Positions 3,001 through 38,314 of a stretch of DNA of 38,379 nucleotides are shown piece after piece. Every line of letters begins with the position of its first letter. Position 1 is the stretch's first letter. The position numbers and the translations under genes are program-made. The stretch spans positions 22,265 through 60,643 of the forward strand of contig CAVIUL010000001.1 in NCBI GenBank assembly GCA_963645885.1. The letters run 5' to 3'. Origin of the DNA: a bacterium (GTDB lineage: Bacteria; Bacillota_I; Bacilli_A; RF39; UBA660). The notes under the pieces were generated by a model. That model was not told the origin of the DNA and did no database searches. It saw only the letters and a program-made list of their open reading frames with translations.

Positions 3001-3675
3001 GATATTCTTTATGATACTAATTATATTGATTAGAATAAAGAAGTACATAGACCTATAGAAGGTAAATTAGATTCAGATGGAAAACAAGTATACGATAAAT
3101 CTACTATATTCCCTCTCTATTATTCAAGAGAAGATACTTTTAATGAAATTGAAGATTCTTATAAAGAAATGACAGCAGCTAACAAAGATTATGAATCTTT
3201 AGCTGGAGCTGAAATTGTTAAATATAATAATCTACAAGAATATCGTATTTGGAATCATGCTAAAGCTGCTGATATTACAAAAGTGGGAAGAATGTAGGGT
3301 AATATGCAATATAAAGAGGATAAATGGGATGTTCAAATTAATCCAATTAATATTGTAGAACGTAACGAAAAAGAATGGGGAACAGAAGATAGTACAGGAG
3401 GAACAGATTTAAATCCTAATAAAATACCTATTGTTTTATAGACTAATAGTATTCCTTCTGAGGTTTGTGATAAAATTCAAAGAGAAGGTACTGATATTCC
3501 TAAAAATTCTGAGGATAGAGCTATATATTCATGGGAGGTTGCAGGATTTAACGATTCTTCTAATAGTTCTGTCAAAGTAAAAGATAAATGGGTAAAGATT
3601 AGGATAAGATACTCTGGTGAAAAATTAGCAATTATCACTGCAATACGAACATTTTATAGTGGAAGTTATTCATAA
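1..3675 (+). CDS. Large virion/tail-associated structural protein, 5' partial (>=1,224 aa), TAG-recoded
   Basis: Frame 1 is open from base 1 to TAA at 3673-3675, apart from 13 in-frame TAGs. ORF-track fragments 478-1206, 1210-1743 and 2320-2646 all lie in this frame. The position directly upstream of cargo-like genes suggests a tail or muzzle-type protein, but I recognised no diagnostic motif. Confidence 0.8.
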
Positions 3676-11100: not shown

Positions 11101-11145
11101 ATTAAACCTCATGTACATAGAACATTAAATTTGTTAGGAATATGA
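8107..11145 (+). CDS. Large protein of unknown function (1,012 aa) with a Ser/Thr-rich linker and a Gln-rich, coiled-coil-like C-terminal half; possible virion internal protein
   Basis: The ATG at 8107 lies 5 nt after the terminator T-tract. Frame 1 is open to TGA at 11143-11145, with 19 in-frame TAGs. Track ORF 8275-9684 is in this frame. Confidence 0.8.
8824..8871 (+). repeat. 24-bp tandem duplication (actcctgatataagttct + 6 nt) encoding TPDISS-STT / TPDISS-ATS
   Basis: The 18-bp core is identical at 8824-8841 and 8848-8865. Confidence 0.85.
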
Positions 11146-13048: not shown

Positions 13049-16000
13049 ATGGAAAGAAGAGAACACGATATATTTATGGATATGCTAGCCAATCCTACTG
13101 CATCATTTGATACAATGGTAACAGTAGGATTGAATTCCTCTAACACTTCTCTACAGGATAGATCTGTATATGAAGGGAACAAATATGTGTAGGAATAGTT
13201 TAAAAATTCAGATGGAGAGTTTGATAAGAAAAAATTTGAGCAAGCATATACCATTGCCAAATCATATTACAATAATTTAGCCAATGCTGATTTTAATGAA
13301 TCTATGCAAAAACAAACTGTTTGGCATAGAGATAGTTTATTAGCACCAGAAGGCTAGAGAGAAAAAGGACCTAGATTCCAAGAATTTAATATGTCTAATC
13401 CTATGGAGTAGGTATTTGGCTTTGGAACTTTAGGAAAAATTGAAGAACCTACTAAGTCTTTAGATGAATTAGCTCAATCCCATAAAGTTTTAGCTAATCC
13501 AACTACAGCAGGAGCAAATTTAGAAAATGCTAAGTGGGAAGATGCTCCTAATGATAACTTTTTCGGCAATTTCTTTGATACTCTTGTTATTGCACAATGG
13601 GATTCTGATGGAGAACATATTGACCCAATAACTGGAGAAAAAGTAAAACATGAAAAAGGTGAGCCTAAATTAAATCAAAATGGAGAGTATTATTATGAAA
13701 AACTTGATGGGCGTGATGTTTATGGTCGTAGAGTTTTAAATAAAATGAATGTTTTGACAAAAGATGGTTCATTTATGAATAGGTTTGACTTTTTTGATTC
13801 AGACGATATTGAACAAAAAAGCATTGCAGGAACTACATTTAAAAATTTAGCTTTAGTAGGTTCCATGTTTATTCCTTATGTTGGTCCTTGGATTGCAGGA
13901 TTAAGTGTAGCTACATAGTTAGCAGGCTTAGGTGCTACGTTAGGTAAAATGGCTTTAGGAAGCGATAGTCCTGTATTGAATGAGATTGAAGGATGGTCTA
14001 AATCTGTAAATAGACAAACTGCAAAATCACAATATGCACAAGAGCATACATGGTGTTGGGAGAATTTTATCAATCTCATAGGTGATACTATGGGACAATT
14101 AAAAGAGTAGAGATTTATCTTTGAGAAAATTCCATCTGTATTTAAAGGAGCAAATATGTCTACCAAAGCAGGATAGGCTGAAAAATTAGCATAGCTTGAA
14201 GAAAAATATTCAACTGAAGCTAAAGAAGCTATAGATAAATTATTTAAAACTGGTAAAAATGGAACAAACTTTACTAAAAGTTCAATAGAATTACAAGAGA
14301 TAGCTCCTTTAAAAGCTCAAGCAGAAATGGATTCATTCATTAAAGGATATAATAAACTTGGAGAAGTTCTTAGTAAAGGTTATATGACAGGAATAACTGT
14401 AGCTGATACATATGGTGAAGCAAAACAAGCAGGAGCTTCTGATTTGGATGCTACTTTATTAACTTTAGGTTATGCTGCAGGTGAATTTGCTATACTTAAT
14501 ACAGGATTAGGTGAATGGATTTTACCTGAATTGAGAGCAGATAAATATAAAACACAAGCCATTAAAAACGCATTATTAAAATTAGACGATGAAGCTAAGT
14601 CTGCAATAAATAACGCATCTAGAGAAGTTAAACAAAGTTACGTTAAACGATTGTTTAATATGGGTAAAAGTATTGCTAACGCTGAATATGCTAATGGAAC
14701 AAGAACTTTGAAAGCAACTCTTGCAGCAGGTGTTGGGGAAGGTGTAGAAGAAGTTAGTGAAGAAGTTTTAGCTGACTTTTCTAAAGCTTGTTTTGATACA
14801 GTTAAATGGTTACAAGGTGATAATGTACGATTAAATACATTTGGATACGACTTTAAAACAGGAAAATGGGATGGTAAAGAAGTTCTTGACAGATATGGTA
14901 TGTCTCTTGTAGGAGGTGCAGTAGGTGGTTCGTTAACTAATGTCGGTACTAGTTACAAAACTTTTAAAGAACTTGATTCTATGACATCTGAATAGGCTAT
15001 TCAAGAGTTAGTTTATATGCATAGAAATGGTACTTTAAATAAATTTGAAGAAAGTATTGATAAATCCCAATTAGCTAATCCTGGTAATTCTGCTACTAAT
15101 TTTGAAGTAAAAGATGGAGTAATATTATATGCTCCAGGAACTTAGGAAAATAATCAAGACTTATTTGCTAAACAAGCATTGCATCAATAGGTTAAAATTA
15201 TAAGAGATATTCTTGATGCAAATGGAGCAAATTTATCTGATGATTCTATTTTATAGAAACAAACTGAAATGTTAGGAGATTTACGTTTTAATGCTTTACA
15301 TAAATCAACAACAGCAGGAGGATTTATTAATGAATTTAATAAATTAAGTTCAGATGTTATTAAATTAACAACTCAAATTAATAATCTAGAATCATCTGAT
15401 TTAGATAGCAATAATGACGGAACGGTTACAGATAAAGAAAAAAGACAGAATGAAGTAAGTCAAGACCATAAAGAACAAATTAAAACATTGCAAAAAACTT
15501 TAAATGATACTAAAACTAAATTATAGGATTTAATTGATGGAAAACGATCTTATGAATTTGTATCTGATGCTTTGTTTGAAATGACTACTGATTTAAGTGG
15601 TAGATTTACAGCTGCAAGTTTTCCTTTATATGTAGAAGCTAAATATCATAAAAAATATTCAGATTTAACAGAGAATGAAAAAGCTATATCTTGGGAAGAA
15701 TACGAAAATTGGAAAACTTCTGAAGGAAGAGATAAGATTAGAGATATGGCAGCTATTTATAGGACTATTTCTGAACAAGCTAGTAAAGTTATTAAAAAAC
15801 ATTCTGATGAATATTTAAAAGGAGATACACATATTCGTAATTTTAACAACCTCATCACAAGAATATTTAATACAATTGATGGTAATTCTGAATCTGATTG
15901 GTTAAGTAATGCTCAACGTATTTAGGACTCTAACTTTAATCAAATTGAAGCAAATTTGATTGCTCAATTTGGAACAGATGAGGATAAAAAAGCATTATAG

Positions 16001-19000
16001 GTTTATGTAGATAGAATGAAATCTATTGATCCTACAATGTCTGAAGAAGAAAGAAAACAAGAATAGGCATAGATAGGTCTTGACTATTCGAATAAACAAG
16101 CAGAAATTATTCTTAATAATCTCTCTAAATTTATTCAACCTTTTATTGATAGCGGGACAATTAATACTGAAACAAAAAATCAACTATTAAAAACATTAGA
16201 ATAGCTTAAACAAATATCAATCAATAAGACAAATGAAGCTACGATGTATGATGCTTCTGAAGAAGAGCAAGATTAGTTGGCAGAAAAAACTGTATAGGTT
16301 CAAAATGCTATTGATGAAATATCAAAATTAGGTAATACTTCTTTTGAAAAGAATTTGAATGAATTTTCTATTGCTATAGGTAATGAACCTATTAATATGA
16401 CACAATTACTTGAAAGATTAAATACCTCTTTCAATGATGTGTCTAATAATATCACTAGGTTTAATATGGATGAGCAATTGTATAAAGATTTAGACAATGC
16501 TATTCATACTATTGAAATGTATCAAGCTGCAATAAAAGGAGCTAGAACAGATAATGCAGGAACTGGAAATTATTTCGGATATAATGCTACTTTAAATGAG
16601 ATAGCTAAGAAATCTGAAGGAGATTTTCCTGAACTTGCAGAAATTGATAAGCTTTCTGCAGATGTATTTATTGCAGATATTAATACTAATTTAAGTAAAC
16701 TTTTATTTTTAAAATAGTTATATCAAATAAACCAAGGTCAAAAGATGACCAGATAGGATAGAGTTGCTGAAAGAAAAGATATTTTATTCTATAGAAGAAT
16801 GAAAAGTATTGTTTCTGTTCCTGATGATGATCCACTAAAATCATGGGAAGGATTTCTTGAATTAAAAAATACTATAGAAGCAGCAACCCTTCATGAAAAT
16901 TTTAGAGACTCTGAAATTATTCAAGAAAAAGATAAAGAGGCTTTTGAGAAAGAAAACATACTTATTGAAGATGCTATATATGACTTTTTCTAGAAAAATT
17001 AGGAAAAAATAAAAGATTCCACTAAGTTATCTGAATTTATAAACGGACGTCATTTGAATCTTTATACAGAAGCTAAATAGATTCTGAATGAAGGTACTGA
17101 TGTTATGGATGATAACTCTATGTTATGGTGGATAGCAAGCCGTTGTGCAGTAAAATCTTCAGCATTTCATAATAGATATTCTTAGATAATTAGTGATAAA
17201 ATAGCACCTATTGCTACTCAAGAATTAGCAGTTTATAATAACTATGCAAATATAGTAAATGGTAATGTTTTTACAGCTTTTGCAAAGGCTTTTAGAGAGT
17301 CTATGGTAAAAGATTGGAAAAGTAAATCTGTAGAAGAAAGAAAGAGAATTTTAACAAGTTTAAATAACTCTGAGGCTTTAGCAGATGATAAATTTGTAGA
17401 TTATGCTTTAAACTTTTTACCTGTTCCTAGATTTGCTAATGTAGTATTAACCGAAGGAATTGCAGGCAGTGGTAAAACTTCTAGTGTATTTACATAGACA
17501 GTTACAATGCTTAAAAAGTTTAATCCTGACGTTTTAAAAAATGTTGCGATTGTACATGGAGCCTCTAAATCAAGTGCTGAAGAAATTCAATCATTATTAG
17601 AAATAGAAAATTCTAAAAGCTACGATAGAGCAGGCTGGATGAAAGAAATTTCTAGTCAATGGAAAGAATATTTAATTGATCCAAAAACTAACAAACATCT
17701 AATAGAAAAATCTGCATATACATTTAGTTCTGAAAATGAAATTCGATCAGCATTAAATATTAATCAAACAGACACACCTCCAAGTCTTATTATTATTGAT
17801 GAAATCTCCAAATTCTCTACTTATGATGTAGATTTAATTAATGATTTTGCTAAAAAATATGGAATTACTGTCTTAGTAGCAGGAGATTTTGATCAATCTG
17901 GAGTTGTAGGATAGCATCCTATTGCAGTAAATGGAGAAACATTAAATTGGCTTCCTGAATTACAAAGAACAAACTTTATTAGGTCTCCTAAATTAGGAGT
18001 ATCTATGAGAACTGATAATTCTCTTAAAACACGAAATCAACAAAAGGTTCAAGCTTATATGCAAAATCACACTTCTGAAGATTTAATATAGCTTGAATGG
18101 TTTCAAGACGAAACTGGTTTATATGGAGATAGAGTCATTAGTTATGAATTTAATGACCCTGATGTTAATGTTAACGATTTAAGAAATCAAAAAGGAAAGG
18201 TTGTTGATAGTGTTATAGGACAAGTTGATAAATTAATTTAGACTTTAAAGCCAGGAGAAAAAATAGGTTATATATTTAATGACAAATCATCTCCTATTTA
18301 TCAAAAATTAGCATCTGATGAATATAAAAATTTTATAGATTTAAAAGAAGGTGGATCTGCTCAAGGATTAGAAAGTAGATATTATGTTATTGAAGCTGAT
18401 CCCACAATTGGACTTTCTAGTTCAGATAATATGGGCTAGAAAATGGCTGAAGATAACTATTTAAAAGAAATTTATACTGGAATCACTCGAGCATAGCAGG
18501 GAAGTATTTTAATTATGCCAACAGACATGGGACCTAAAATAGGTACTGTTTAGGTTAAATCTAAAATTAATGAAATTATTAATCCTGCAATAATTAAAAG
18601 TTATTCTATCAAAAGAAAAAATCTTTTAGAAAAAATTACTACTTCTTAGGATATTGAATATGTTCCTCGAGACAAAGAGGCATTAGATACCAAAAAACCT
18701 TCTGGAGAATCTAAAACTGGTTTAGATGAAGGAGTTACTTTACCTCCTCTACCTGATAATGAAGATACTACAAAAAAATCAGCTACAGTAAAACCTGATA
18801 GTACACCTGATGCAATTACACCTCCAGAAACAGTAGATTTTGAAACTCTTCCTTCTGGAGATTAGGAAGAATTATCAAAAATTCAAGAAAATGTAATTAA
18901 GAATCCTAAAACCGAAGAACCCTGGGATACTAATGATACTAAATCTTTAATTCCTTATGGATAGATTGTTTCGGTACAAGGTGAATATGGTGTTATAAAA

Positions 19001-22000: not shown

Positions 22001-22480
22001 GATAATTTTGGAGTAGCTAATTTTAAAATAAGAGTTAATGATGTTGAATATTTATCAAGTTATAATAAATCTACTGGGACTATTAGAATGACACCTCCTG
22101 GAGAATATCATGAAAATGCAGCAACTGCAGTTAAATTATCTATTACAGAACAAAACTTTAACGAGTATATTGCTGATGGTAAAGAAGCTCTTTTTGAATG
22201 GATTGATGAAAACGGATAGTATTACGATTGGGAGATAGAAGACCTTTTTAACTCAACATCACTTGAGGAAATGCAAGAAGTTATTAGTCAAATGACTAAA
22301 TTAGACGATGATGCATTCTTAGATTTAGAAAAATATACAGAAAGTGATGAGTTTAAACAACTTGATGATAGAAAGAAATAGATTGTAAAAGAAATAAACG
22401 AATTAGAACGAGCTATTCGAGATAGAAATTATGATGAAAATCAAGAAACTTGTAAAATTGATATAACTTTTAAAGTATGA
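13049..22480 (+). CDS. Giant protein (3,143 aa) with N-terminal hydrophobic/TM-like segments and an internal SF1 (RecD/Dda/Pif1-like) helicase domain
   Basis: The ATG at 13049 lies 2 nt after the upstream TAA. Frame 2 is open for 9.4 kb to TGA at 22478-22480. I checked every gap between track ORFs and found 52 in-frame TAGs and no TAA or TGA. The hydrophobic run is LALVGSMFIPYVGPWIAGLSVATQLAGLGATLG (about 13850-13950). Confidence 0.85.
17456..18493 (+). other. SF1 helicase core motifs inside the 3,143-aa protein
   Basis: Motifs read in order: Walker A GIAGSGKT (17456-17479); Walker B/motif II LIIIDEIS; motif III VLVAGDFDQSG; motif V-like GGSAQGLESRYYVI; motif VI YTGITRA (TGITRA at 18476-18493). 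They are collinear across 5 TAG-separated ORF fragments. Confidence 0.7.
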
Positions 22481-25400: not shown

Positions 25401-28400
25401 TAATAATCAACTTCTATTATACAGATACCGTAAAAAAGAAGATTTTTGGATTGAAAAAAAGTCAGAAGTATTGAAAAGTTTGCTTTCTAGTAAGACTAAT
25501 TTCAATACAAGTAATACTGTATAGGCTGAATGTAATTATTTACGAGATTGGAATAGAAAACAGGTATCTTCTGGAAACCCTAATTGGATTAATTCTTCAG
25601 GAAACTTAATTCTCGCTAAAATTATTATTAATCAAGATACACCAGATGAGCGTATAGTTGATATAACTTCACAAAAAGACTTTGTAAAATTAGGAATTTC
25701 AAATTATCATGAGTTTATTACAAGTCACGCAGCTGATATTCAATTAAATCCTTTAATTGAAAAATATAATGCACTTGATTATTTATTTACTCAAGAGTTT
25801 ATGAATACCACAGTAGGCTCTTTTGTAGCCCATCCTAATAAAACAGGGTCACAAGATGTTATTGAACAAGAAGCTGGACATTTCCAAGCTCAGCATAAGC
25901 GTAATGTATCTATGACTGCAGCAATGCATGAATTTTAGCTTAATTTGTTATCAGGAATTCCCGAAACTTATAATTTAGCTGTAATTGATGATATTCATGA
26001 TGAACAAGGCACAATTACAGGGTTAATAAATGGAATCAAACCTTTTGATGGTGCTACATTTGTAAATCCCTTTGTTGTTCTTCTCGAAAATTATTCTTTA
26101 TGTGGAGCTAAAGCTGGTATTAGTAAAAAATAGTTTGTTCATTTTAAAAACGAAAAAACTGGTACAGGTGGTATCATTAAAACTGCAGGATTTGGATTAA
26201 CTAATGATTGGATTAGAAATTCTCCGTTTTTACAAAAAATGATGAGAAAAATGACAAACCATGTTTGGCTTAATGAAGATGGATCTTCTGCACATGTAGA
26301 TATTACCAAAGATTATTCAGGAAACAAAATAGAATATAAAAATATTTATTATAAATAGAATGGAAAGTATTATAGAATTACCGATATAACTTATAATGGA
26401 AATAATACATATACTTATAATTTATAGGAAGTTGATGCAAAAGGTAATTTTATACAATATATGAAACCGTCTCAAGGTAGAAGATTTGTTTCAGAATAGA
26501 TTGATACTAATTATAAATTATGGAATTTCTTTGGTGGTGCGTGGTCTATGGAATTAAAAAATGGAAAACTAGTTCCGTCTAATACATCTGTAGAAAACGT
26601 AGTTACTGCAATGAACAATACTAAATCTGAAGAAACTGTATTAAACAAAACACCTAAAACTCAATCAGATTTATGGCAGCCTCTTAAAATGGTTGATGTT
26701 CATTATCTTGCAACAGCGGGTGCTGTAAAACAAGGTGCTGCTAATATTAATTCATCAAGCAAATATACAGATGAAGAAGATTATGATATTTAGAAAATTC
26801 ATATGTATCAAGCAGGAATCCAGCTTGATAAAGAACATCATGCTGATGAAGCAGAACTTTCTTTAATGACTCAGGTTATATCTGCTTGTGCCGCAAAAGG
26901 ATATACATTTGAAGCCGCAGCAACACTTTATGATGCTTTAGCAAAAGCAACTAGATCTAAAACCTCAGATCATTTAAAAGCTGTAGAAAATTTATTTAAC
27001 GCAGATACTCCTGAAAATAAAGCAGCTCTTAGAGAGGTTTTAGTAAAATCTATCGTAAAAGTATTATCTACAAGTAATAGTAATAATTTTGCTGTAAAAT
27101 TGTCAAAAGAATTAGAGCAACAAGCAAAAAATGGAAAAGAAATAAAATATTCTGAACAATTATTGCCACTTTCTGATAATAATATTCACGCAAAAGTTCT
27201 AAGTGCTATAACTTCATATTTATCAAAAACTGGTATTAAACAAAAAATTCCAGGTGTATTATCAGTGCTTACACCTTCTTATAATATAAATAAGATATAT
27301 GCTGGTAAAAAGTATGAAGCTTATGAAAATCCAGATGAAGAACTAGAACAAATACAAACAAAATAGGTACCTGTTTATGATAGCAGTTTTAAATATCGTA
27401 AAGGATCTAATAGTTTCAGAGGTTTAACTTTAAATTTTGTTGAACCTAATAGTTTAATTTCTGAAATAGATGGATAGCCCGTAGCTGCTAGAAATAATGG
27501 AGATGGAATTGTTTCTCTAGATGAAGCTTTACTTAAATAGAAATTTGAAGATAGAGCTTGGAAATACTCTAGAAATTCAAGAGCTCTTGATTAGGATTTT
27601 GAAACTTATGAAGATTGGCTTAACTTTGTATTACTTCATGAATCAATGCATGATGAATATAAAAAAGAGGAAGGAGAATCTTAGTTTGATTATGAGTCTC
27701 GCGTTAATGACGAAGCATTAAAACGTCTAAATAGTTCTATTAACAATATTGAACTTGGTAGAGAATATTATATTACTGAAAATGTTCAAATTGATCGTGA
27801 GATGATGGATGAAGCTGGAAATATTATAACAGTTTCTGAAATACAAGCAATAACTGGTAAACCTAGATTAATAAGAACTCCTCTTGAATATTATCAATTA
27901 AAATAGGATATTGCTACAGGAAAAGTTTCAAAAGTTGTTGAATGTGTAAAAAACGGTAGAGACCTTGCAGGTTTTAATGTACGATTCAAAACTGATAAAG
28001 GATATTTTTAGTTATGGGATTTAGATTCTTCTCACTGTTTATTTAATTTGAATGAAATATCTGAAGGTCTTAAAAAAGGGAAATTAACTCAAGAAGAAGC
28101 AATTGAGGAGCTTCGAAAAACATTCTAGAGATTCTATCCAAGATTTAATGAGTTAGGAATAAATATAACTTTTGATAATTTTCCAAATTTATTTAAACAA
28201 TTAAAAAGATATTCACATAAAAAATTACAACAAGATTTAGCTAATTTATCAAAAGAAGAGCCTAATGTTTTAGAATAGTTTTAGAAATTAGTTAAATCTA
28301 AGCAAGATACTCCAGAATGGTATTCTCGATTTGCATCTTGGATAAATGTTAAACTTGGATTAAGAAATGGTGAATACATACAATTGGGAAATGGAACTAA

Positions 28401-31400
28401 AGTAAAAGTTACTAGGGATAATTATAATCAAGTGGGAGCTTATGTATTATAGTTATTCAAAGATATGTCAAAAGTTAGAATTAATGGAGAACTTCATAAA
28501 ATTGATAAAGAATCTATTAAAACATAGCCTTATGAAGTAATAATGCCTAAAACTTTTGCTACAGCTTTCGGATTAAATGAATTTGATTCATTAGAAGAAA
28601 TTGCAAAAGATCCAGAATTCTTCTTAAAACAATATATTAAAAATCAAGCTTCTAAAGTAGCTTAGAATTAGTATTCTGTTGAATTTAAAAGGTCTACAGG
28701 ATAGCATATATATGTACTAAACAAATCTCAAGTACCTGGTTCAGGATTACATAAATTAGAAGGAGTTTTAACTGAAGTTGAAGATGGAGTTACTACAAGA
28801 TTAGATTCAATGAATCAACCTATGTATGAACTTTCTCCTGATTCTGAAATTTACATAGATGATTAGGGAAATGAAGTAATTGTAAGTGATGATATTGAAT
28901 TTTATACCAATTCATTATTTTATGATTCTATAAAAATTTCAGAGAATTTAAGAAATAATTCATAGGTATTAAGATCCCTTCCTGAAATATTTAGAAATTC
29001 TTCAAACAAAACAGCTAATGCGTTTGGGAAATTTTTAAGGTCTTATGGAGATTCTAATATAATTATGGGAAGTGATGATTGGAATGATATAGACCAAAAT
29101 CACCCTATAGTAAAATTAATGCATGAAAAACATTCTTCTTTCTTAAGAGCATTAGATATTGTTGCTGCTCGTATTCCTGCACAATCTATGCAATCATACA
29201 TGCCTATGAAAGTTGTAGCTTTTGATAACCCAAATATTAATACTGCATATGTATCTACATATCAAATTTTACTTCAAGGTTCCGACTATGATATAGATGC
29301 AGTTTCTTTAGCTACTTTTGACATAGACTCTAATGGAATGTATTAGCTTTGGTCTCCATATGCTAATATTTCAGATATTGAAAAATTACATGCTTCAGAA
29401 CTACTACCAATTCCAACAGGTTTAGAAACAGAAATTAAGAGTACAAACGATATAGCAGAAGCAATTAAGATTTTTGATGAATATCAAGATTTAATATCTA
29501 TTACTCCTAGACAAACTTACAATAAAGAGTCTAAACTTCCAGAAATTGATCCAAATAAAGTAAATGTAGATTTAAATTTGGATACAGCTGAACAAATAAA
29601 GATGTTAGGTGATTTATTAAATGAATAGTTATTGTCAATAGATCCTGTGTATGCTCCGCAATTTATTAAAAAATTTAATAAATTAGGAGGATTTTAGGTA
29701 TCTAATATAGAACAAATTAATGACATTTTATCTCAATTAAAATCAATCATAGATAAACATAATTTTTATTTTGATAAAGTTTCTGAGAAGAAACTCAATC
29801 ATATCATTAATAATAGAACTATACTTTCTATGTATAATAGTATTAATAATCCTGTTAATTTAACTTAGGCTCATATGTCAGTGGATAATACAACAGGCCC
29901 ATTAAAAGATGTTGCTGAAAATGGATCTCCTGAAATTATATATGAATCAAAACATAGAACTCCTGGAAATTTTGTTAATAAATGTGAAAGTATTAATGAA
30001 AACCAAGTTGGTAAAACAGGTATTGCTATTTGTGCTACTGGATTAAAAGGATTTTTTGCATTAACTCAATATAATAACTATTTATTAAACAAAGGAACTT
30101 CAGAAGAATAGAACAAACTTCTATTTAATGTATCAATAGGTAATAATATATATAGAACTTTAGCAAATATAAGAGCTTTAGATCCCAATACCATTACTAA
30201 TAACACAGTGTTAAAATGTTTAGCTCAAACAGATAATGATGAAGATGCTGCACTGGTTTTATCTGCATTACTATCATTAGCTACTGATAATGCCAAAGAA
30301 TTAGCTCTTTCTAAATTAAATGCAGGAACTAAAACATTAGGTATGTATGTTTATGGAATAGCTATAGGTATGGACTTTAAGGATATTGCCAGACTCCTTA
30401 TGTCAAAAACAGGTAAAACTATAGTAGATATTTCTGAAAGTGATGTATTTGATCAAACAGACGGATATATTACTATAAAATCCGCTTTTGGATATTTCGA
30501 ATAGTTACCTAATAAATATTTAAATAAATATAATATTAGAAAAAATCCAAATGGAACTTCAATAAAATCCCCATTAGAATTTTTTGAAGATTAGATAAGA
30601 AAATTACCTGATGATTTTTATTTTGAAGATGATGGTCGAGAAATGCCATTAAATGTAGTTCTAAGTAATTTTGCTAAAAGAAATTGGGATTTATCGGATA
30701 AATTATAGATATTAGAATCATTAAGAAATAGATACAATACATCTGCTTATGGATCAGAAGTTTATGAGCAATTAATAGACTTTTTAGAAGATTATGTTAT
30801 TGGATCTTTTGAAGTTAATGAAGACTATGAAACATATCAATAGTTAAAAACATTAGCTGAAGGAGCAGATGAAATGAAGACATTAGGTCAAATATTAGGT
30901 TTAAATGGAGGAATTGCTACTGACTATGAAGGATTAACTAAACAAATAGATAGAATTGAAGAAGTTATTTATAAACAGTCTCATGATTTAGAGGATATTA
31001 TAGATTTATCTAAATTTGTTTTTGATTCTGAATATCGTCAGGAATGTATTGAAAAATACGAGACATTTAAACATACATTTAATATTCTTGACTGTTTAGC
31101 TAAAGTTCCACATTTTTTTGAATATGTAAAATAGCTTGCAGTTGCTCAAGAAGAGATAAAACAATCCTATAAATATAGAAGTGTTAAAAGTTTAGCTCGC
31201 AATGTAAGTGATGTAATTGGGTGGAGTAACAAAGGAAAAATTTCTAAAGGATTACAAAATTATATAGGTGACAAAATCAGAAATGACTGGATGCTTGATA
31301 GTGAAATAATAATGGATATGCCTTCTGGAATTAAAGCATTTGACAGAAATGGTGATAGTGATACTTTAACTGAAAGTAAACCTATAAGATTAGGAACTGA

Positions 31401-32409
31401 TTGGGGTAATGCTACATTTAGAATATTTATGGAAACTCAAGTTATTCCTGATTTAAAAAAAGGTATTATTCGTCCAGGAACTAGTGTAGGATCCATTAAA
31501 ACTAATAAGTTTATAAAGGATTTAACCCCTGACTTATTTACTAAAACAGTATCTTCTAATCCTACTATATTATATACTTTACCTATTAATATGTTACCTA
31601 GAACAGATGTTGAATAGTCTTTACTAGATTCTTATATTGGTGAGTTTAATGAATTAGCAGGATATACATACGATTATAATGTTATTAAACGAGATGTTGA
31701 TGGAAATGAACAAATTATACAACAATCAATTCCTATTAAAGATTTGTTTATTTACTATTCAATGATAGCACATAATTGGAAATTAGGAGAAAATTCATTA
31801 GTTCCTATTTTAGAAAATTTTTAGGATACTGGTTTAATTGATGCATTTCATAAATATGAGGCATCTTTAGATAATAGTGGGGAAACTCTTACTGAATACA
31901 ACATAAATGAAATTCTTCCATACGTTGTTCCAAGAATGAGTCCTTATTCTGCTTACACAAAATATATAAAAGCGAAAAATCCTTCTAGTAAAAAGATTGA
32001 AATAATGAAAAGAACAGTATCTGATACACAAACTGATAATAATGAGATGTATGAAGGAAATGAAATGTATGAGGATATTATATATGGAATGATTGATTCT
32101 AATAAAATAGGCAATTATGAATTTATACAAAACAATCTTGATACTAATTATTTCACATCTGGTATAATAGGAAGTACAGATAAAATTATAAAATCTGAAA
32201 TTATAGATAATAAGGGTGAATCCTTACAATTAGAAATACAGTATGATTCTGAAAATGATAGTATTAAACGAGTTGCTGTTGATAATGTTATGTATGATAT
32301 TAAAACATTATCTCATGCTCTATTTACTAAAATAGACGGAAGAAAAGTTCCAAATCTATCATTGATGAAAAGTATAATTAAAAATGAATTATATCCATGT
32401 CATGTATAA
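22477..32409 (+). CDS. Giant protein (3,310 aa): putative virion-packaged two-barrel RNA polymerase (crAss-like vRNAP)
   Basis: The ATG at 22477 overlaps the upstream TGA (ATGA). Frame 1 is open for 9.9 kb to TAA at 32407-32409. I checked all gaps and found 52 in-frame TAGs. It contains a beta-prime-like DPBB segment, AARIPAQSMQSYMPMKVVAF...LLQGSDYDIDAVSL. Confidence 0.85.
29284..29298 (+). other. DxDxD (DYDID) candidate catalytic metal-binding motif of the RNAP
   Basis: The codons gac tat gat ata gat give D-Y-D-I-D. The upstream R-x-P...hydrophobic strand resembles bacterial beta-prime (RAPTLHRLGIQAF...NADFDGDQMAVH) and the DxDxD motif reported for giant crAss-like phage proteins. Confidence 0.65.
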
Positions 32410-33455
32410 ATAAAAAATCTCCTGAGTACTAGGCTTTGAAAAATAAGTCTGGTATTCAGGAATTTATACTAGAAGCTATATGTAGAGATTTTGTTGATGA
32501 ACATCAGAGATTTCCGTATCTTGATGAACTTTCAGATGTTAATTCTGAACTTCATTTGAAAAAACGATTATCTATTAATTCTTATGGAACCTCTAATATT
32601 AGTACTATTTTAGAAAAAAGTAATGCTTCTGATTTAGAAGAAGCAGCAATCAATTTAAATAATGAATACAGAGATTTAGAAATAGATATTACTCCTATTC
32701 AAGAAACTGCTTTTATAGATATAGAACATAGACCTACAGATTCTAACTTCGAAACAAATCCAGTAACAGTGGATGAACATCCAAATAATTATGATATTTT
32801 TAATAATGCATTAATAAAATTAGCATCATTATATGGAATAAAATTTAATGCAATAACTAATGCTGAGTTAAATTCTGAAACTTGGAATAATGTTCCAGGA
32901 GTAATGGATGCTAATGCATTTATATTTAATGGAGAAATTTATATAAATTTAGATAAAAGTTCAGTAGATGCTCCTTTACATGAATTAATGCATTTATTAA
33001 TTGGGTCTATGAGATTTTCTGATCCTAATATTTATTAGCAATTAGTGGCATCTGTTGAAAATATTCCAGATTTTCAAAAACTAGCCCAAAATTATCAAGG
33101 AAGAACAGCAAATGATATAAAAGAAGAAATTTTTGTTACTGAAGTTGCAAAACATTTAACAGGTCAATCTTCTTTTATAGATAATTTAGATGCTAATATT
33201 CGTTATGAAATACTATATAATACAAGAAGATTATTAGACTCTATATTAATGGGACAAGATAGTGTAAGAACAATCTCTCCTAAAAGATTGTTTACAATGT
33301 CATTAAAAAATCTTACTAAAGAAGTTAATTCTGTAATAATGTCTAATAATTTTAAAGGGTATGTAAATTCTGAAGATTCTGAGTTACATAGAAGACTTAA
33401 TAATATTAAATCAGATTTATTAAAAAATAATCAACTAGAAGAATATTGTGAATAA
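32397..33455 (+). CDS. HExxH protein, putative zincin-like metallopeptidase (352 aa from ATG 32397; 339 aa if the TTG at 32436 is used)
   Basis: Frame 3 is open to TAA at 33453-33455. The ATG at 32397 overlaps the upstream gene by 13 nt and needs read-through of the TAG at 32430. A second in-frame TAG lies at 33036. The motif VDAPLHELMHLLIGS has HELMH at 32979-32993. Confidence 0.7.
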
Positions 33456-36400
33456 TGGCATGTATATATAAATATAAAGGACATACATTTAATTCTGAAT
33501 TAGAACTTGATGATTTTATTCTTGAAAAACTTCCGTTTGAGCCAACAATGGGCGATTTAGTCTTTAGTATGACCGAATAGCAACTAAATATATCTTCTCA
33601 ATTAAGTAAAATAGCTAAGGATTCTCATGAACTTGTAAGGAAATATCAAGAAATGTTAAACAACAACAAAGTTCTTTACAACGAGGATGGAGAAATGGCT
33701 TTAGAAGATCCTCCTTATATTGGAGTAAACAAGTTTCTTTCTGGATTAAAAAATGAATCAGGAGAATTATTATTTCCTGAATTTAGAGAAGAAGAATATT
33801 GGACACGACGATATGCTAATTGGAAAGTTGGACAATTCACAGATGCTGAAATAGAAGAATTTGAATTAGACAAAAATAACTTACCAAAAATTACAGAAGC
33901 TAGTGAACACAAGAGGCTAAGAGATTAGATGACTCATAAATGGGAAGTTCAAGCAAAAACTGGTTCTGCAATACATAATATTTTTCAAATTTGTTTTTAG
34001 AAAGAAAAGGGTGTTTATAATTTTTCTTTAGATGATGCACAATTAGAAAAAATAATTGAATCTAAATTAGAAGAAAAAAATAAACCTTATATAAAAGGAG
34101 ATATAGTTCAATAGGCAATTAAATATGCTAGAGAACTAAATGCAAAACTTACAGAAAAATTTGGAGAAGGATGTGCATATTATCCTGAATTTATGGTATC
34201 CCAAGATACAAATATTATTGAGAAAGGACATCCTACTAAATTAATGGGCATCATTGACCTTTTAATTGTAGATCCAACTGGTAAAGTACACATTTTAGAT
34301 TATAAGACTTCTATTCATGATTATCATGACTTTGTTCAAGCAAAAAAGAATTCTTATAGTTATCAATTAGGTACGTATCAAAGAATGTTACAAAAATATG
34401 GAGTACAAACATATCAAGGATAGTTAATGGTTGCTCCTATTCAAATTACTGATTTTAAAAAGGACGGAGATTCTTATACTTATTCAGGTATTACTACTTC
34501 TGAAACAATTACTGAAGTAGGTGTGCAATTAAATGCAGATAAAATGTGGGAGAACATTGATGAATTTATGCCTGCTCCTTTTAAGTTAAATATAACAACT
34601 TCTGAAGCTATTAAAACTACATCAGAAATGATGGCAAAATGGTTTCCTAATTATCGTTCTAATTATAAAATTAATCGCGAAGATTTGATTAAACGATTAA
34701 AGCAATAGAACAAATTAGAGAAAAATGAAAATGGACAGTATGTTTATACTAAATATGACTCTAAAGAAACTATTGTTGCTACAGAAGAAGGCGAATTTGT
34801 TGATAAAATTCTTAAATATGAACAAGGTTTACCAGCAAAACGATTGGAAGTTACAGCAAGAGTTAAAAATGCATTAACAGAAGCTATAAAGAACGGTATA
34901 GATAATGTGGATTTTCCTACTCCTACTACTATATCTTCTGATGGTTCTACAACCTGGTTAAAAGATACATTATCTCCATATTGTAATGGTCTTTGGGAAA
35001 TAGAAGATAATCATCTTCTGGAATCATTTGGAGTAATTATGTTAAAAACAAAAGATGGTATATCTCCAAAACAAATTGAGTTTGTTCGTGTTAGTACAAA
35101 TACATTACGAAGAGATCATAGAGCACATTTAGATAAAGAATCTAGAAAAAATGTATTTATGGAAAGAAAAGGATTACTTTCTAATTATGAAAATGATGTA
35201 ATTTAGAAGTCTAAATCTAATTCTTTAATGGTAGAAGGTGTTCAAGGTAATGTTGAACTTATAGAAACATTATTATTAATCAACCAAATGAAAGGTTTGG
35301 AAGGCTGTACAATTGGAAATGTTCAAGTAGTAAATCCAATTCAAGCAAACGGTATTTCTTTAACTAATGAAGAATTAATTTATTGTTGGAATGAATTAAA
35401 CAAACATGATAAAGTAAATTTTGACAATATTAAAAATGGTGATATAAAGTTTGCTAATAAATATGAAATAGCCAGAAATAAATTTGCAAATATCATGAGA
35501 TTAGGTGCAAAATGTGATTGGAAAGATAACTATCGTTTATTTGGAAAACTCAGAACATCTTTACCCGTACTAGATGAAAATATAAACGGAACAACTGAAG
35601 AAAAGATTTCAGCGTTAAAAGAACTTTTAAATAAAATTTCACAAAGTGATAATGCAAGAACTTTAGACAAAGTTTATTCAGAACAATCTGATTTAAAATC
35701 AGAAGCTGTAGATTTATATAACTCTATATTATAGGCTATAGCTCAATTAAAAGGAGTTAATTTCAGACAACAATTAAATGATCATGATAAATTTGTTGAA
35801 AGTCTTGCTATGTGGAAAAATGGATTATCAGGTACTTATATTGATAACCCTGGAAATATGGATAGTGAAACTCTTAATTTAGTAACAGGTTTAGTTACAG
35901 AGGCTTATCAAAATACTAGAGATGATATTCAAAGAGAAAAACCAAAAATTTATAAGTTGATAGAAAAACTTAAAAAGGAGAAAGGATTTAATGTAATTTC
36001 TGAAAATACTATAGGCAACTAGACATCTCTTTATTCTAATATGTTTTAGCCATATACAAAAGGAGGAGATTTTCTTTTTAAAAATCCGAATGATTTACAA
36101 GGTGCTGAAAAAGAATTTTTAACATATGCACTAGACAAAATAAATCGTAATCGTTATCCTGGAAAAACAGACGAAGAATATGAATATATGAAAAATTCAG
36201 GAAGTATTGATTATTATAGAGTACCTTTAGCTAAAGGTGGAGAGGATTCAATTGCTTCTACTAGAGGATTGTTAAGTGCGTTAAGAACTAAATTAAGTTA
36301 TTTAAATCCTAAAACAGCTTTCCAAAATGCTAGAGAAAAAGTAGAAGGAATATTTAATGCTGATGAAGATATTTCAAAGCAACAGCAAACAGAATTAATA

Positions 36401-38257
36401 TATAAAATGAATACAATGTTTGATGGAGGAGAAAATACTGAAAAACGTATTAAAAAGTTATAGGATAAAGGAGAAGACTTTTTTGAACATAACTTAGAAA
36501 CATTACTTTATAAACACATGTTTTCATACTCTGTAAAGAATAATATGGATGGAGTATTTCCTATGATTAAGGCTGCTATGGCTCATATTTGTACTTAGGG
36601 AGCTATGCAAAATCATAAGTTTAGTGAAGATATTCATTATTTAGATCGTTATATTAGAAATAAAATATATAACCAATCTATTATCGATCCTAAACTTCAA
36701 GATGTAGCAAAAAAATTAGGATTGTTAAAACAAGCCGCATCAAAATTAACTTTAGCATTTGCTCCAGTTCAAGCATTTTATCAACCTTTACAAGGACTTT
36801 GGACGGATATAAGTCTAATGATTCGTAAACCTGACGGTAAAGATTCATTTACATTTTCTCATTTCACAAAAGCTTTGAAAATGGTATACTCTGATTTGGG
36901 ACACTTTTCTGATTCTCCTACTATTTGTTCATCACTTAACGAAATTTATGGAATAAATGATATGGATATGAATACATATACTGAACGTATTAGTAATGCT
37001 AAAAAAGGTATATGGAATTTTGAAAATTTTATGTTTAAATTTGCATCTCGTCCTGACTTCTATAATCGTATGAGTATTTTCCTTTCACAAATGATGGGAG
37101 ATGGTTGTTTAGAAGCGCATACTTTAAAAGATGGAGAATTAATATACGATTGGAAAAAGGATAAAAGATTTGAAGCATTTGCAAATGGTAGAACTAGTGA
37201 CCCTAAGTATCATCAACAAAAAACATTATACTATACTATAGCATAGCAATTTGTAAATGAACATGCTAAAGTTAAATTATCTGACGGAAAAGTTACAGAT
37301 TTTAAATTAGATATGTCAAAGCCTATGCCTTTACCGAGAGCTTACACTAACAAACAAGCTGAAAGTATGAAATCTTTAGGAGACGATATATATGGTTACT
37401 ATTCGCATGAAAAGAAATCACTTATAATGTCTACTACATTAGGTAGTCTTTGGTTACAATTTAAAACATACTGGTCTGGTAAAAAGAATCAATACTTATA
37501 GTCTGGAGGAGTTCGATTAAGAGGTAATTGGGAACATTATGAAGAAAATGGTGAAAAATATTATTATCAAACTGATAAAAACGGTAACACTCTTTTCAAC
37601 GAACCTCCTAAAACTGAAAAAGAATTAAAAGAAATGGGACAAAAAGCAATATCCCCAGTAATGCAATGGAAAGGACAGTGGCAAGAAGGTATTATTTTAA
37701 CACTATCTGATTTAGCTAAAACTGCTTGGAATAATGGAGTTTTGTCTACCAATCCTAATAAATCATGGAATGCGTTAAAAACAGCTTGGAATGAAAAGTG
37801 GAATGCTCAAGATGAAAATCTTAGAACTGCTTATCAAAATAATATAAAATAGTTATTATATGATTTTAGTATGTTCTTAATAGGAGGATGTATCTTAGGA
37901 GCTTTATTAGGAGATTGGCTTGATGAATTAAAAGACGACAATAAGAAAAATAAAGACTTTGTTACAGGATTAGGAATAGCTGCAGCAAATGTAGCTGTAT
38001 TATCTGTAAAAAATTCATTTTTAGACTTTAATGCTATTGATTCTATAGGTGGTGCAGTTCAAACATGGACTCCTTTTTCATTTGATTGGACAACAGGAAC
38101 ATTAAAGAACGCATGGAAAGTAGCAACAGGTGATGAAGATTTCTGGGATGGAGTAATTAAAACATCTGGTGGATTAAGATAGATTAAACCTGCTTTAGAT
38201 GCAATAAAACCAGATATGTTTAGAACTAAGTCTGAAGGAGGAACATTTGGACAATAA
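33455..38257 (+). CDS. Large protein (1,600 aa): N-terminal PD-(D/E)xK (RecB/Cas4-like) nuclease domain, long unknown region, C-terminal hydrophobic helices
   Basis: The ATG at 33455 overlaps the upstream TAA (TAATG). Frame 2 is open to TAA at 38255-38257. I checked all gaps and found 16 in-frame TAGs. The C-terminal hydrophobic segments are FLIGGCILGALLGDWL and GLGIAAANVAVLSV (about 37870-38020). Confidence 0.85.
33929..34400 (+). other. PD-(D/E)xK nuclease motif set
   Basis: The motifs are GSAIHNIFQ (motif-I-like), GIIDLLIVDPTGKVHILDYKTS (D at 34256, D-Y-K at 34298-34306) and QLGTY (34364-34378). This is the classic RecB-family order G.iD...(h)hDYKT...QL..Y. Confidence 0.7.
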
Positions 38258-38262: not shown

Positions 38263-38314
38263 AGACCCTCTCTAAACAAACAAAGCAACAGCTAAGTTTA
38301 TTCAGAGAGGGTCT
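38263..38314. terminator. Perfect 11-bp inverted repeat (AGACCCTCTCT / AGAGAGGGTCT) with a 30-nt loop; possible operon-end terminator, orientation ambiguous
   Basis: The stem is 38263-38273 pairing with 38304-38314. An A8 run (38256-38263) precedes it on the plus strand, which reads as a T-run after the hairpin on the minus strand. No T-run follows it on the plus strand. Confidence 0.5.

Follow-up and report, generated by a model that had tools for sequence, protein, structure and literature searches.

Positions 13049-38257 of the window (the whole stretch of DNA analysed, 38,379 nucleotides) quite probably represent the distal end of a late, TAG-recoded structural operon, and with it this lineage's version of the crassvirus block of virion RNA polymerase (RNAP) and cargo proteins, which would be extruded together with the DNA. 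Gene structure, domains, synteny and homology to virion components of cultured crassviruses were computed directly. The co-packaged, ejected reading is well supported by homology, because the block layout (muzzle, giant proteins, RNAP, giant protein, convergent replication genes) is that of phages phi14:2 and crAss001, and because mass spectrometry has detected the counterparts of gA, gB and gD in virions of these two phages (GenBank notes; PMC10172136). The four proteins encoded here would likewise be packaged in the virion. Whether such a combination had been described was left undecided by the initial annotation, which had proposed a co-packaged helicase, RNAP, metallopeptidase and nuclease. 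The concept is in fact already published, for crassvirus cargo proteins in PMC10172136, for a transcription gene block in which a giant protein has a PDDEXK domain in PMC7886860, and for polyvalent proteins in PMC5512222. To the known block, this lineage adds three modules, of helicase, nuclease and zinc-peptidase-like type. The phage, a large crAss-like one, most likely belongs to the Zeta group, judging from genome size (related contigs reach ~165-180 kb), an intein, the switching of codes and an origin in the human gut.

Gene structure and recoding of the late operon

Read with the standard code, 13049-38257 is broken into short pieces, and no ORF in the window exceeds 518 aa. With TAA and TGA as the only stops, long plus-strand frames appear, which were not obtained under TGA or TAA recoding. 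These are gA (13049-22480, 3143 aa), gB (22477-32409, 3310 aa), gC (32397-33455, 352 aa) and gD (33455-38257, 1600 aa; the last large gene of the late operon), with 52, 52, 2 and 16 in-frame TAG codons, respectively, exactly the 122 counted initially; the junctions were also as described, namely ATGA between gA and gB, a 13-nt overlap between gB and gC, and TAATG between gC and gD. Chance cannot account for frames that run beyond 3000 codons with neither TAA nor TGA, since rough arithmetic from base composition (~28% GC in the window) predicts these two triplets at several per cent of random codons. TAG probably encodes Gln, since Q is the residue most frequently found in the standard-code relative L001 at the TAG columns of the window (15 of 100 aligned positions, against a background of 3.8%). 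The premise that recoding concerns late genes holds in the relatives, where the block is TAG-rich (27-37 TAG per 1000 codons) and the convergent early genes are nearly TAG-free (0-1 TAG in ~1160 codons).

The four genes had been regarded as an operon of their own. Their tight coupling stands, but a start at 13049 does not, since g6 (8107-11145, 1012 aa) and g7 (11142-13046, 634 aa), both on the plus strand and TAG-recoded, overlap by ATGA at 11142 and are translationally coupled toward gA, from which g7 is separated by a gap of 2 nt. The block is instead the distal part of a more extensive late operon, which begins no later than the muzzle-protein gene with which the window opens. This gene, g1 (1..3675, plus strand, truncated by the window start), matches crAss001 gp44 (muzzle; aa 1063-1233) through its aa 492-674 (blastp, E 3e-8) and places the block at the tail end of the structural operon. 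For g6 and g7, similarity to crAss001 C1/C2 or phi14:2 gp079-081 was not detectable. Directly after the gD stop, a 10-bp GC-rich inverted repeat (GACCCTCTCT ... AGAGAGGGTC; 38264..38313, unstranded) with an RNA fold of -25.4 kcal/mol is a candidate terminator closing the operon; it is missing from the results of a simple terminator scan, which allows only shorter loops.

Gene order was identical in every locus examined (L001, L002, L003, L004/5 and L007-L013), the genes being neither absent nor scattered among relatives. Upstream of gA, a g7 homologue of 614-638 aa was found wherever this gene was seen whole, and a gD homologue of ~1530-1600 aa, PDDEXK_1-positive in three loci, comes next after gC.

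Domains of the four proteins

All features described in this section lie on the plus strand. Judged by sequence, gB is a homologue of the phi14:2 virion RNAP, which has itself been validated experimentally, and the RNAP prediction holds on this homology together with an invariant DxDxD motif. This motif (GSDYDID, nt 29284-29298) lies in the catalytic region (aa 2224-2654, 29146..30438), and its residues D2270, D2272 and D2274 do not vary among 19 sequences. When gB and 89 representatives were combined into a profile (90 sequences), hhalign matched it over 334 columns to aa 1314-1662 of phi14:2 gp077 (probability 94.6%, E 6.8e-8), GSDYDID falling on GSDFDID; weaker, collinear matches to crAss001 gp50 were obtained around the same motif. 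The most conserved N-terminal block of gB, a core at aa 1113-1264 (25813..26268) that includes KPFDGATFVNPF and FVHFKNEKTGTGGIIKTAGFG, is a candidate beta-like barrel in which invariant columns are densely clustered (19 sequences), and it aligns weakly with aa 467-606 of crAss001 gp50 (E 0.01-0.08). Foldseek found nothing for gB and the two-barrel fold was not confirmed; in the AF2 model, segments of the candidate barrel block and of the DxDxD motif have pLDDT <50. gB belongs to a very large family, with 1228 clusters at 50% identity (E<=0.001), and its sequence had zero matches in Pfam, PHROG and PDB. A variable insertion at ~aa 1640-1755 (27394..27741), also with zero Pfam matches, contains a second HExxH (LLHESMHDE, nt 27631-27657); most homologues lack it, some have other inserts in its place, and in homologue P0120 it is degenerate (TREKMY).

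Upstream of the polymerase, gA appears to correspond, by position and in part by sequence, to phi14:2 gp078 and crAss001 gp47. Its aa 2051-2152 match gp078 aa 1363-1469 (hhalign probability 78%, E 1.9e-5), accompanied by weak collinear matches, and the collinear matches to gp47 are weak. Here and in gD, matches to the reference cargo proteins are moderate (68-79%) and cover parts of the proteins only. The membrane-like segments initially claimed for two of the proteins were found in gA and gD. In gA, a Gly/Ala-rich hydrophobic hairpin (aa 267-303, 13847..13957; Kyte-Doolittle peak 1.56) is kept in relatives, and the N-terminal part is also hydrophobic in gp078 (aa 168-190, with an SMF(I/V)P motif similar to the gA hairpin) and gp47 (aa 106-124). 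The predicted helicase domain is borne out by an SF1-type core at ~aa 1455-1830 (17411..18538), marginally above the cutoff for Pfam AAA_30 (E 3e-6, 27.5 bits, cutoff 27), with Walker A (GIAGSGKTS), Walker B (LIIIDEIS) and motifs III (AGDFDQSG), V (GGSAQGLE) and VI (YTGITRAQQG). AAA_30 was also hit by the gA homologues of L004, L011 and L012, and the motifs are kept across all six lineages seen. Against the PDB, the helicase profile retrieved SF1B helicases only, namely MERS nsp13 (E 1e-4), then Upf1/NAM7 and SARS-CoV-2 nsp13. A helicase was looked for in phi14:2 gp078 and crAss001 gp47 and was not detectable; being absent from these, it cannot be something that crAss transcription generally requires, and appears to be an acquisition specific to this lineage.

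In gC, the metallopeptidase signature also holds. An N-terminal domain is followed by a zincin-like domain with HELMH (nt 32979-32993) and NDIKEEIF (nt 33111-33134), the latter with a candidate third ligand; H195, E196, H199, N239, D240, E243 and E244 are invariant in 25 sequences. The AF2 model (mean pLDDT 73.5) has strands followed by the HExxH helix, and its fold is common to phage polyvalent proteins: with E values of 1.5e-5 to 6.5e-3, Foldseek against BFVD retrieved large polyvalent proteins of phages along with one SprT-like protein and one from a crAss-like virus. Nothing significant was found in PDB or Pfam, and the Pfam MPTase-PolyVal model was not reached. Some homologues carry an inserted ART-PolyVal domain. 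On this model, gC would be a free-standing zincin-like peptidase module of the phage polyvalent-protein kind.

The giant protein encoded after the polymerase, gD, seems to correspond to phi14:2 gp076 and crAss001 gp49. The nuclease prediction is solid: a PD-(D/E)xK domain at aa 151-386 (33905..34612; motifs GSAIHN, GIIDLL, ILDYK and YQLGTYQ) matches Pfam PDDEXK_1 with E 2.7e-12 (47.6 bits, cutoff 22) and aa 1695-1924 of crAss001 gp47 with hhalign probability 79% (E 1.6e-5); its single, weak PDB match is a PD-(D/E)XK protein. The close clade keeps these motifs intact; in L001 and L002, which are distant relatives, they have degenerated. The C-terminal region (aa 1057-1484, 36623..37906) is related to aa 887-1229 of crAss001 gp49 (hhalign probability 68%, E 5e-5). 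It is here that the second membrane-like protein has its transmembrane-like helix (aa 1467-1489, nt 37853-37921; Kyte-Doolittle 1.94), kept in relatives and followed by a second hydrophobic stretch (aa 1502-1518, nt 37958-38008); equivalents of the helix exist in gp49 (aa 1212-1230) and gp076 (aa 1291-1311).

Proposed mechanism and alternative roles

In our model, the block proteins would be synthesised late in infection, when TAG is decoded as Gln, packed into the cargo zones of capsid and tail, and extruded partly unfolded, ahead of or together with the DNA. Through their conserved hydrophobic helices, gA and gD would contact the envelope, and the gB polymerase would transcribe the TAG-free early genes. 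More speculatively, the gA helicase could provide the polymerase with a single-stranded template; this lineage-specific helicase is of interest because the phi14:2 polymerase transcribes only ssDNA in vitro. Equally speculative would be a processing of cargo by the gC peptidase, for instance of a cleft-blocking domain of the polymerase, as would be any role of the gD nuclease. The division of labour initially proposed, with a helicase translocating DNA, a nuclease attacking host DNA, a peptidase maturing precursors and hydrophobic proteins forming the channel, is likewise hypothetical.

It is possible, if rather doubtful, that the helicase, nuclease, peptidase and the ART of relatives are not helpers of DNA entry and transcription but injected anti-defence or host-takeover effectors ("weaponry"), the helicase shielding incoming DNA from restriction, the nuclease attacking host nucleic acid and the peptidase freeing effector domains. 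P1 DarB, a packaged methylase-helicase, is a precedent both for a packaged helicase and for the protection of incoming DNA from restriction. Furthermore, the fold of gC has its matches among domains of large polyvalent proteins of phages, many gC homologues have an inserted ART-PolyVal, the gB insertion is a hot spot with different modules by lineage, and zincin peptidases, helicases, nucleases and the N4 vRNAP are all part of the published polyvalent-protein framework (PMC5512222). However, gA and gD are conserved giants with counterparts across Crassvirales instead of freely shuffled effector arrays, the retention of the helicase core in all six lineages is more what one would expect of a core function than of an arms-race module, and the targets of such effectors are not inferable from sequence; moreover, this proposal bears on roles alone and does not conflict with the packaging model.

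We regard it as improbable that the polymerase is the sole virion cargo, and that gA, gC and gD are merely co-transcribed and act late inside the infected cell, where the peptidase would mature proheads and the helicase and nuclease would serve replication, recombination, packaging or the processing of concatemers. Replication and recombination are indeed the usual work of SF1 helicases and PD-(D/E)xK nucleases, and further PDDEXK nucleases are placed in the replication and structural blocks of crAss-like phages by PMC7886860; yet gA and gD are partly homologous to virion-detected proteins (phi14:2 gp076/gp078, crAss001 gp47/gp49), the enzymatic domains are embedded in proteins of 1600-3143 aa with conserved hydrophobic helices, and the replication module is TAG-free and on the opposite strand. 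Least likely of all, the catalytic signatures would be relics in essentially structural or ejection proteins (gA and gD) with non-catalytic helicase and nuclease domains, as the loss of (D/E)xK from retained proteins in L001 (LYLFK) and L002 (IYQNV), the degenerate HExxH of the gB insertion in one homologue and the marginal helicase database matches might suggest, but at 40-60% overall identity the close clade, the window included, retains all nuclease motifs (H, D, DxK, QxxxY) intact and conserved, as it does helicase motifs I, II, III, V and VI, and gC H195, E196 and H199 are invariant in 25 sequences.

Comparison with known systems

Our preferred reading, a packaged and extruded polymerase and cargo block, finds a close parallel in phi14:2, although sequence identity with the window is too low for BLAST or phmmer. 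There, gp077 is the solved vRNAP "gp66" (Drobysheva et al., Nature 2021), which transcribes ssDNA and not dsDNA, and whose cleft-blocking domain may need cleavage or refolding (preprint 10.1101/2020.03.07.982082). The order runs from the muzzle gene gp082 through gp081, gp080, gp079, gp078, gp077 and gp076, all annotated in GenBank as structural proteins detected by MS/MS, to convergent replication genes including a metallophosphatase. In both phages the block ends the structural operon between the muzzle gene and convergent replication genes, with a central protein carrying GSD(F/Y)DID and homologous over ~340 residues, an upstream giant protein sharing a homologous segment and an N-terminal hydrophobic hairpin, and a downstream protein with a C-terminal hydrophobic helix. 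In contrast to phi14:2, the window proteins are 1.5-1.75 times larger and TAG-recoded, gA carries an SF1 helicase core, gD a PD-(D/E)xK domain (none was detected in gp076), and a separate 352-aa zincin-like gene is present.

For crAss001, gp45 (C1), gp46 (C2) and the RNAP-associated gp47, gp49 and gp50 were found in virions and named cargo, with proposed storage in capsid and tail cargo zones and partly unfolded ejection (Bayfield et al., Nature 2023, PMC10172136). Here too, giant proteins are encoded after the muzzle gene, the gD nuclease resembles gp47, the gD C-terminus gp49, and gB resembles gp50 around DxDxD, with hydrophobic helices at matching positions. However, gp49 and gp50 lie on the opposite strand in crAss001, its nuclease is in gp47 and not in the gp49 counterpart of gD, and homologues of C1/C2 were not found within the window.

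Yutin et al. (Nat Commun 2021, PMC7886860) describe for the Zeta group a "transcription gene block" of several giant multidomain proteins, one with DxDxD and some with PDDEXK, a reassignment of TAG or TGA that is restricted to late genes and can change from one close relative to the next, inteins as well as genomes of 145-192 kb, a human-gut source and few GenBank homologues; all of these features are matched by the window and its relatives. The Zeta RNAP ORFs are described in the same paper as heavily fragmented by stops and frameshifts, whereas gB is one intact frame with TAG as sense.

Polyvalent proteins of phages and conjugative elements are giants with a virion context, in which domains of zincin-like peptidase, ADP-ribosyltransferase, helicase and nuclease type occur together; the prediction is that they are packaged and injected so as to act against defence and jump-start transcription. 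The N4 vRNAP itself has a zincin-like peptidase domain (Iyer, Burroughs, Anand, de Souza, Aravind, J Bacteriol 2017, PMC5512222). The gC fold match and the ART-PolyVal of gC homologues are reminiscent of these, but the modules are here distributed over four coupled genes around a putative two-barrel-type RNAP instead of a T7-like one. Similarly, N4-like phages (Schitoviridae) pack a vRNAP, which in N4 is single-subunit and T7-like, unlike gB, together with ejection proteins into the head, and eject them before or with the DNA to form a trans-envelope conduit and start transcription (PMC13434306), and the T7 gp14/15/16 ejectosome is comparable (T7 is discussed in PMC10172136). With these head-packed, ejected proteins of N4 and T7, as with P1 DarB, the block would share a likeness at the level of the system.

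Recoded frames and limits of the operon

Read with the standard code, the longest ORF in the window comprises 518 aa, every ORF lying on the + strand, and long frames appear with TAG as a sense codon but not with TGA or TAA as sense, so that reassignment of either of the latter two was ruled out. Four frames, all on the + strand, emerge in this way: gA, encoding the giant helicase-bearing protein (13049-22480, 3143 aa, 52 in-frame TAG), gB, encoding the RNA polymerase homologue (22477-32409, 3310 aa, 52 in-frame TAG), gC, encoding a zincin-like protein (32397-33455, 352 aa, 2 in-frame TAG), and gD, encoding a nuclease-bearing protein (33455-38257, 1600 aa, 16 in-frame TAG). Their TAG codons (52+52+2+16) add up to the 122 counted in the initial annotation, and the ATGA, 13-nt-overlap and TAATG junctions are exactly as described there once the frames are read with TAG as sense. 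Pseudogenes or a frameshifted assembly were likewise ruled out as the source of these frames, because they contain neither TAA nor TGA across 9-10 kb and are conserved.

The tight coupling originally claimed for a unit of four genes holds for gA-gD but does not begin there, since the upstream genes g6 and g7 overlap by ATGA, and g7 and gA lie 2 nt apart. This coupling extends upstream; gA-gD make up the distal end of a late operon that is longer and starts at or before g1, the gene at the left end of the window, which encodes a muzzle-protein homologue (blastp to gp44 of the cultured crAss-like phage crAss001, E 3e-8). On the 3' side of the gD stop lies a strong hairpin (38264-38313, -25.4 kcal/mol), whose GC-rich inverted repeat of 10 bp encloses a spacer of 30 nt. 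Beyond it, a new + strand ORF starts at 38326 (MTYTEAIKIAKQGKTLKL...), unlike in most relatives, which change strand here at once.

Among the upstream genes, g2 (3675-6152, 825 aa) is interrupted by an intein of 262 aa, which shows a LAGLIDADG-like motif (LAGIFDVNGD), has GM|CVCAGT and ITHN|TSTD as its boundaries and is matched by Pfam Intein_splicing (E 5.5e-15, aa 297-543); the remaining extein of 563 aa is Gly/Ala-rich. The products of g3 (6152-7036; AERAA/TEAAA repeats) and g5 (7684-8046; GAPEGG repeats) are of low complexity, g5 being the sole gene of the window with no in-frame TAG. Between them, g4 (7024-7614) encodes a DUF192/COG1430 protein (Pfam E 3e-24), an unusual site for such a gene, between the muzzle and the giant cargo genes. 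When g2 (intein removed), g6 and g7 were aligned by hhalign with gp45/gp46 (C1/C2) of crAss001 and with gp079-081 of phi14:2, a second cultured crAss-like phage, the probability was <=0.7% throughout; gp46 homologues are reported to be missing in the zeta group (PMC10172136).

TAG is most probably read as Gln, because Gln is the residue most frequently found at the window's TAG positions in a standard-code relative (15 of 100 aligned columns, background 3.8%). Despite the dense TAG recoding, no tRNA, suppressor tRNAs included, is encoded in the 38-kb window. As to codon usage, the Gln codon CAG is nearly absent from it (0-8 per gene vs 3-96 CAA). Such loci annotate cleanly with TAG as Gln, and domain boundaries can now be given for four proteins that are unnamed in public databases: the window's proteins are already deposited there, gB and gC as exact matches from an NCBI source, with no name from any source.

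Conservation of the block and restriction of TAG to late genes

The claim that these genes belong together is borne out by their relatives, as the order of the g7, gA, gB, gC and gD homologues was identical in every related locus examined, including two distant ones from GenBank. Homologues measure ~620-640 aa for g7, ~2750-3250 aa for gA, ~345-355 aa for gC and ~1580-1600 aa for gD, the latter being PDDEXK_1-positive. The two distant relatives, both from Mexican faecal samples, keep this order though genes are split or extended: in the standard-code L001 (MT835470.1) the gB homologue is split, with a gap of ~1 kb at 23336-24373; in L002 (MT835492.1), which recodes TAG, the gA homologue is in two pieces; and both have a longer gC homologue (779-809 aa) and a gD homologue without the catalytic PD-(D/E)xK residues. 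Past the gD homologue, relatives carry small and replication genes on the minus strand (DUF3310, YqeY, metallophosphatase, UDG, AAA ATPase and DnaD-like). Megablast of the 25-kb block matched no GenBank phage, tblastn returned two unannotated human-gut records only, PHROGs assigned no family to gA-gD, and the related-locus search with gD as query yielded 4 close loci only.

The premise that recoding is restricted to late genes is supported in these relatives, where the block carries 27-37 TAG per 1000 codons vs 0-1 in ~1160 codons of the convergent genes. Furthermore, the convergent early and replication genes of three relatives (L004, L011 and L013) end only in TAA or TGA. Given both the count of 0-1 and this choice of stops, TAG is avoided altogether in the convergent genes rather than used there as a stop.

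Predicted catalytic modules of the four proteins

The call of gB as an RNA polymerase is upheld by its DxDxD motif and by homology beyond this motif to gp077 of phi14:2 ('gp66'), a virion RNA polymerase (vRNAP) validated biochemically and structurally (10.1101/2020.03.07.982082). The motif, GSDYDID, lies at gB aa 2268-2274, with D2270, D2272 and D2274 invariant in 19 homologues, and aligns on GSDFDID of gp077 and GSDFDVD of crAss001 gp50. With a profile of 90 sequences (gB and 89 diverse representatives), hhalign placed gB aa 2224-2654 on gp077 aa 1314-1662 at a probability of 94.6% (E 6.8e-8, 334 columns), superposing the catalytic aspartates. Only this broader profile reached gp077: the 19-sequence profile gave a probability of 0.7% against crAss001 gp50, single-sequence methods found no match to the validated polymerase, and the full-length gB family aligned with gp077 over a degenerate two columns, a result that was discarded. 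Neither Pfam, PHROG nor PDB sequences matched gB, and phmmer and the 19-sequence profile retrieved nothing significant from PDB, the phi14:2 polymerase included.

A second, strongly conserved block (gB aa 1113-1264) is a candidate beta-like barrel. It aligned weakly with crAss001 gp50 (E 0.01-0.08) and, from the 90-sequence profile, not with gp077. For gB aa 1131-2330, the AF2 model has a mean pLDDT of 60.5, falling below 50 at the candidate barrel block and at the DxDxD segments, and Foldseek of this model, poor in the barrel regions, found no PDB match at E<=0.001. The gB family itself is large, with 625 matches in the 90% database, on contigs of up to ~178 kb, and 1228 clusters at 50% identity, by which latter number the lineage is judged very common.

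Between these regions, gB aa ~1640-1755 (27394-27741) forms a variable insertion hot spot, in which a second HExxH (LLHESMHDE) is located. Most homologues do not have this insertion; in others its place is taken by unrelated inserts that can reach several hundred residues, and in one homologue its HExxH is degenerate (TREKMY). Conceptually the insertion is reminiscent of the N4 vRNAP with its peptidase domain, but it matched no known family, and Pfam at E<=10 gave chance matches only.

For gD, the nuclease call is confirmed by Pfam PDDEXK_1 far above the gathering score (E 2.7e-12, 47.6 bits vs a cutoff of 22). Its H, D (GIIDLL), DxK (ILDYK) and QxxxY (YQLGTYQ) motifs are intact in the window and in the close clade, and the PD-(D/E)xK motifs are degenerate in the distant L001 and L002.

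The predicted SF1-type helicase core of gA (~aa 1455-1830, + strand) shows Walker A (GIAGSGKTS, aa 1470), Walker B (LIIIDEIS, aa 1580) and motifs III (AGDFDQSG, aa 1611), V (GGSAQGLE, aa 1768) and VI (YTGITRAQQG, aa 1809) in order, in two RecA-like halves. Six lineages conserve all five motifs (I, II, III, V and VI), with IDE, GD..Q and R..N invariant. Pfam AAA_30 matched gA at E 3e-6, barely above the gathering score, and among relatives AAA_30 positivity refers to the gA homologues of three gene-called loci (faint in L004/L005, weak in L011, without such a mark in L012). Against PDB, the helicase-region profile retrieved SF1B helicases only, MERS nsp13 being the best (E 1e-4), followed by Upf1. 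Phmmer alone found no match to this region, and a large protein search with it was dominated by P-loop words and gave 3 fragments only. Taken together, motifs, AAA_30 and PDB matches lend the helicase call of the initial annotation real but marginal database support.

For the metallopeptidase signature noted in gC, HExxH and a candidate downstream ligand are invariant in 25 homologues. These are H195, E196 and H199, together with N239, D240, E243 and E244 of an NDxxEE motif lying 44-49 residues past HExxH, whose Glu is a candidate third zinc ligand. In the AF2 model (pLDDT 73.5), strands are followed by the HExxH helix and then by more helices. Foldseek of this model in BFVD retrieved large polyvalent phage proteins, a SprT-like protein and a crAss-like virus protein (E 1.5e-5 to 6.5e-3, low TM-scores); against PDB no match was significant, though Zn peptidases recur (3c37, 4l7a, anthrax LF, PPEP-1). 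In Pfam, gC reached no peptidase family even at E<=10, the MPTase-PolyVal model included, its two halves run separately at E<=10 gave chance matches only, and a sequence profile found nothing significant in PDB. Among the gC homologues listed, about one in six (530-605 aa; e.g. P0183, P0196 and P0219) contains an ART-PolyVal ADP-ribosyltransferase insertion (Pfam E down to 5e-17) between the N-terminal and zincin-like domains (alignment columns ~120-400), which gC of the window lacks.

Possible function and relation to known crassvirus systems

The mechanism that we envisage has the gA-gD products synthesized late and carried in the virion as cargo until they leave it together with the DNA, after which the ejected polymerase would transcribe the TAG-free early genes. 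In vitro, gp66 of phi14:2 transcribes ssDNA and denatured DNA, not dsDNA; it is packaged self-inhibited, with a cleft-blocking domain proposed to refold or to be cleaved after ejection, and QDE-1, a structural relative of gp66 from fungi, depends on the helicase QDE-3 (preprint 10.1101/2020.03.07.982082). These properties make it attractive, if speculative, to regard a co-injected helicase as template opener and the zincin as activator, and the SF1 helicase, PD-(D/E)xK nuclease and zincin-like module beside the polymerase become candidates for template opening and polymerase activation. In its explicit form, in which a working gA helicase injected with the polymerase would open the dsDNA genome to provide the ssDNA template and the zincin would cleave the cleft-blocking domain after ejection, we consider this scenario rather unlikely. 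If true, it would represent a self-contained ejected "helicase-polymerase-activator" transcription starter, of which we found no description for any phage in the literature examined. As reasonable as the roles of template opener and activator is that the added enzymes serve anti-defence, as polyvalent proteins (PMC5512222), a role to which both the ART-PolyVal insertions in gC homologues and the variable insertion hot spot in gB would point.

Packaging and ejection of the gA-gD products can be set against cultured crAss-like phages, as the layout of gA-gD is that of a crassvirus virion-polymerase block. In phi14:2, the muzzle gene gp082 is followed by gp081, gp080, gp079, gp078 (1797 aa), gp077 (vRNAP) and gp076 (1421 aa) and then by convergent replication genes, and all proteins from the muzzle through gp076 are annotated in GenBank as structural proteins detected by MS/MS. 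Shared with this order are the muzzle gene, the giant proteins around the polymerase, the end of the operon and, in the relatives, the ensuing convergent replication genes, a strand switch replaced in the window by the hairpin and + strand ORF behind gD. In crAss001, gp45, gp46, gp47, gp49 and gp50 are virion-detected "cargo", housed in zones of the capsid and the tail and partly unfolded when ejected (PMC10172136). The membrane-like hydrophobic segments that had been ascribed to two of the four proteins were found again in gA (aa 267-303) and gD (aa 1467-1489 and 1502-1518), and hydrophobic helices match in position, being N-terminal in gA, phi14:2 gp078 and crAss001 gp47, and located ~110-140 residues from the C-terminus in gD, phi14:2 gp076 and crAss001 gp49.

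Profile alignments likewise suggest, with moderate confidence, that gA and gD are partly homologous to crassvirus virion proteins: gA aligned with gp078 (hhalign probability 78%), the gD nuclease domain with crAss001 gp47 aa 1695-1924 (79%), and the C-terminal third of gD with crAss001 gp49 (68%). Pfam was negative for phi14:2 gp076 and gp078 and for crAss001 gp47, gp49 and gp50, and there is no helicase in gp078 or gp47. The gA helicase is specific to this lineage, an accretion whose size was estimated at roughly 400-500 residues from collinear anchor points of the gA-gp078 alignment. As a separate observation, the segment of gA best conserved with gp078 (aa 1363-1469) is aa 2051-2152 (19199-19504), which includes HIPFYMSTGRGG...WYPFFG; no known domain is assigned to this segment, which may be a signature module of the giant crassvirus protein upstream of the polymerase.

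For the Zeta group, PMC7886860 and PMC12386605 describe a "transcription gene block" whose proteins are giant and multidomain, with a PDDEXK domain in some of them. Contig size, code switching among near relatives, the g2 intein, human-gut origin and the scarcity of GenBank homologues all match this group, so that the phage appears Zeta-like from shared properties rather than from phylogeny. The fit to polyvalent proteins, a published concept that includes the peptidase-bearing N4 vRNAP (PMC5512222), is loose. It lies in the combination of the helicase with conserved regions in gA, of the nuclease with a gp49-like region in gD, and of ART with zincin in gC homologues. Unlike in polyvalent proteins, the modules here are distributed among several genes, and the greater part of every giant protein lacks a domain assignment.

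The locus reveals no new kind of system, and the reading of the four genes as a co-packaged, ejected enzyme toolkit is essentially a rediscovery of what is published as crassvirus cargo, as the crAss transcription block and as polyvalent proteins, within which the specific module set of this lineage may be new.
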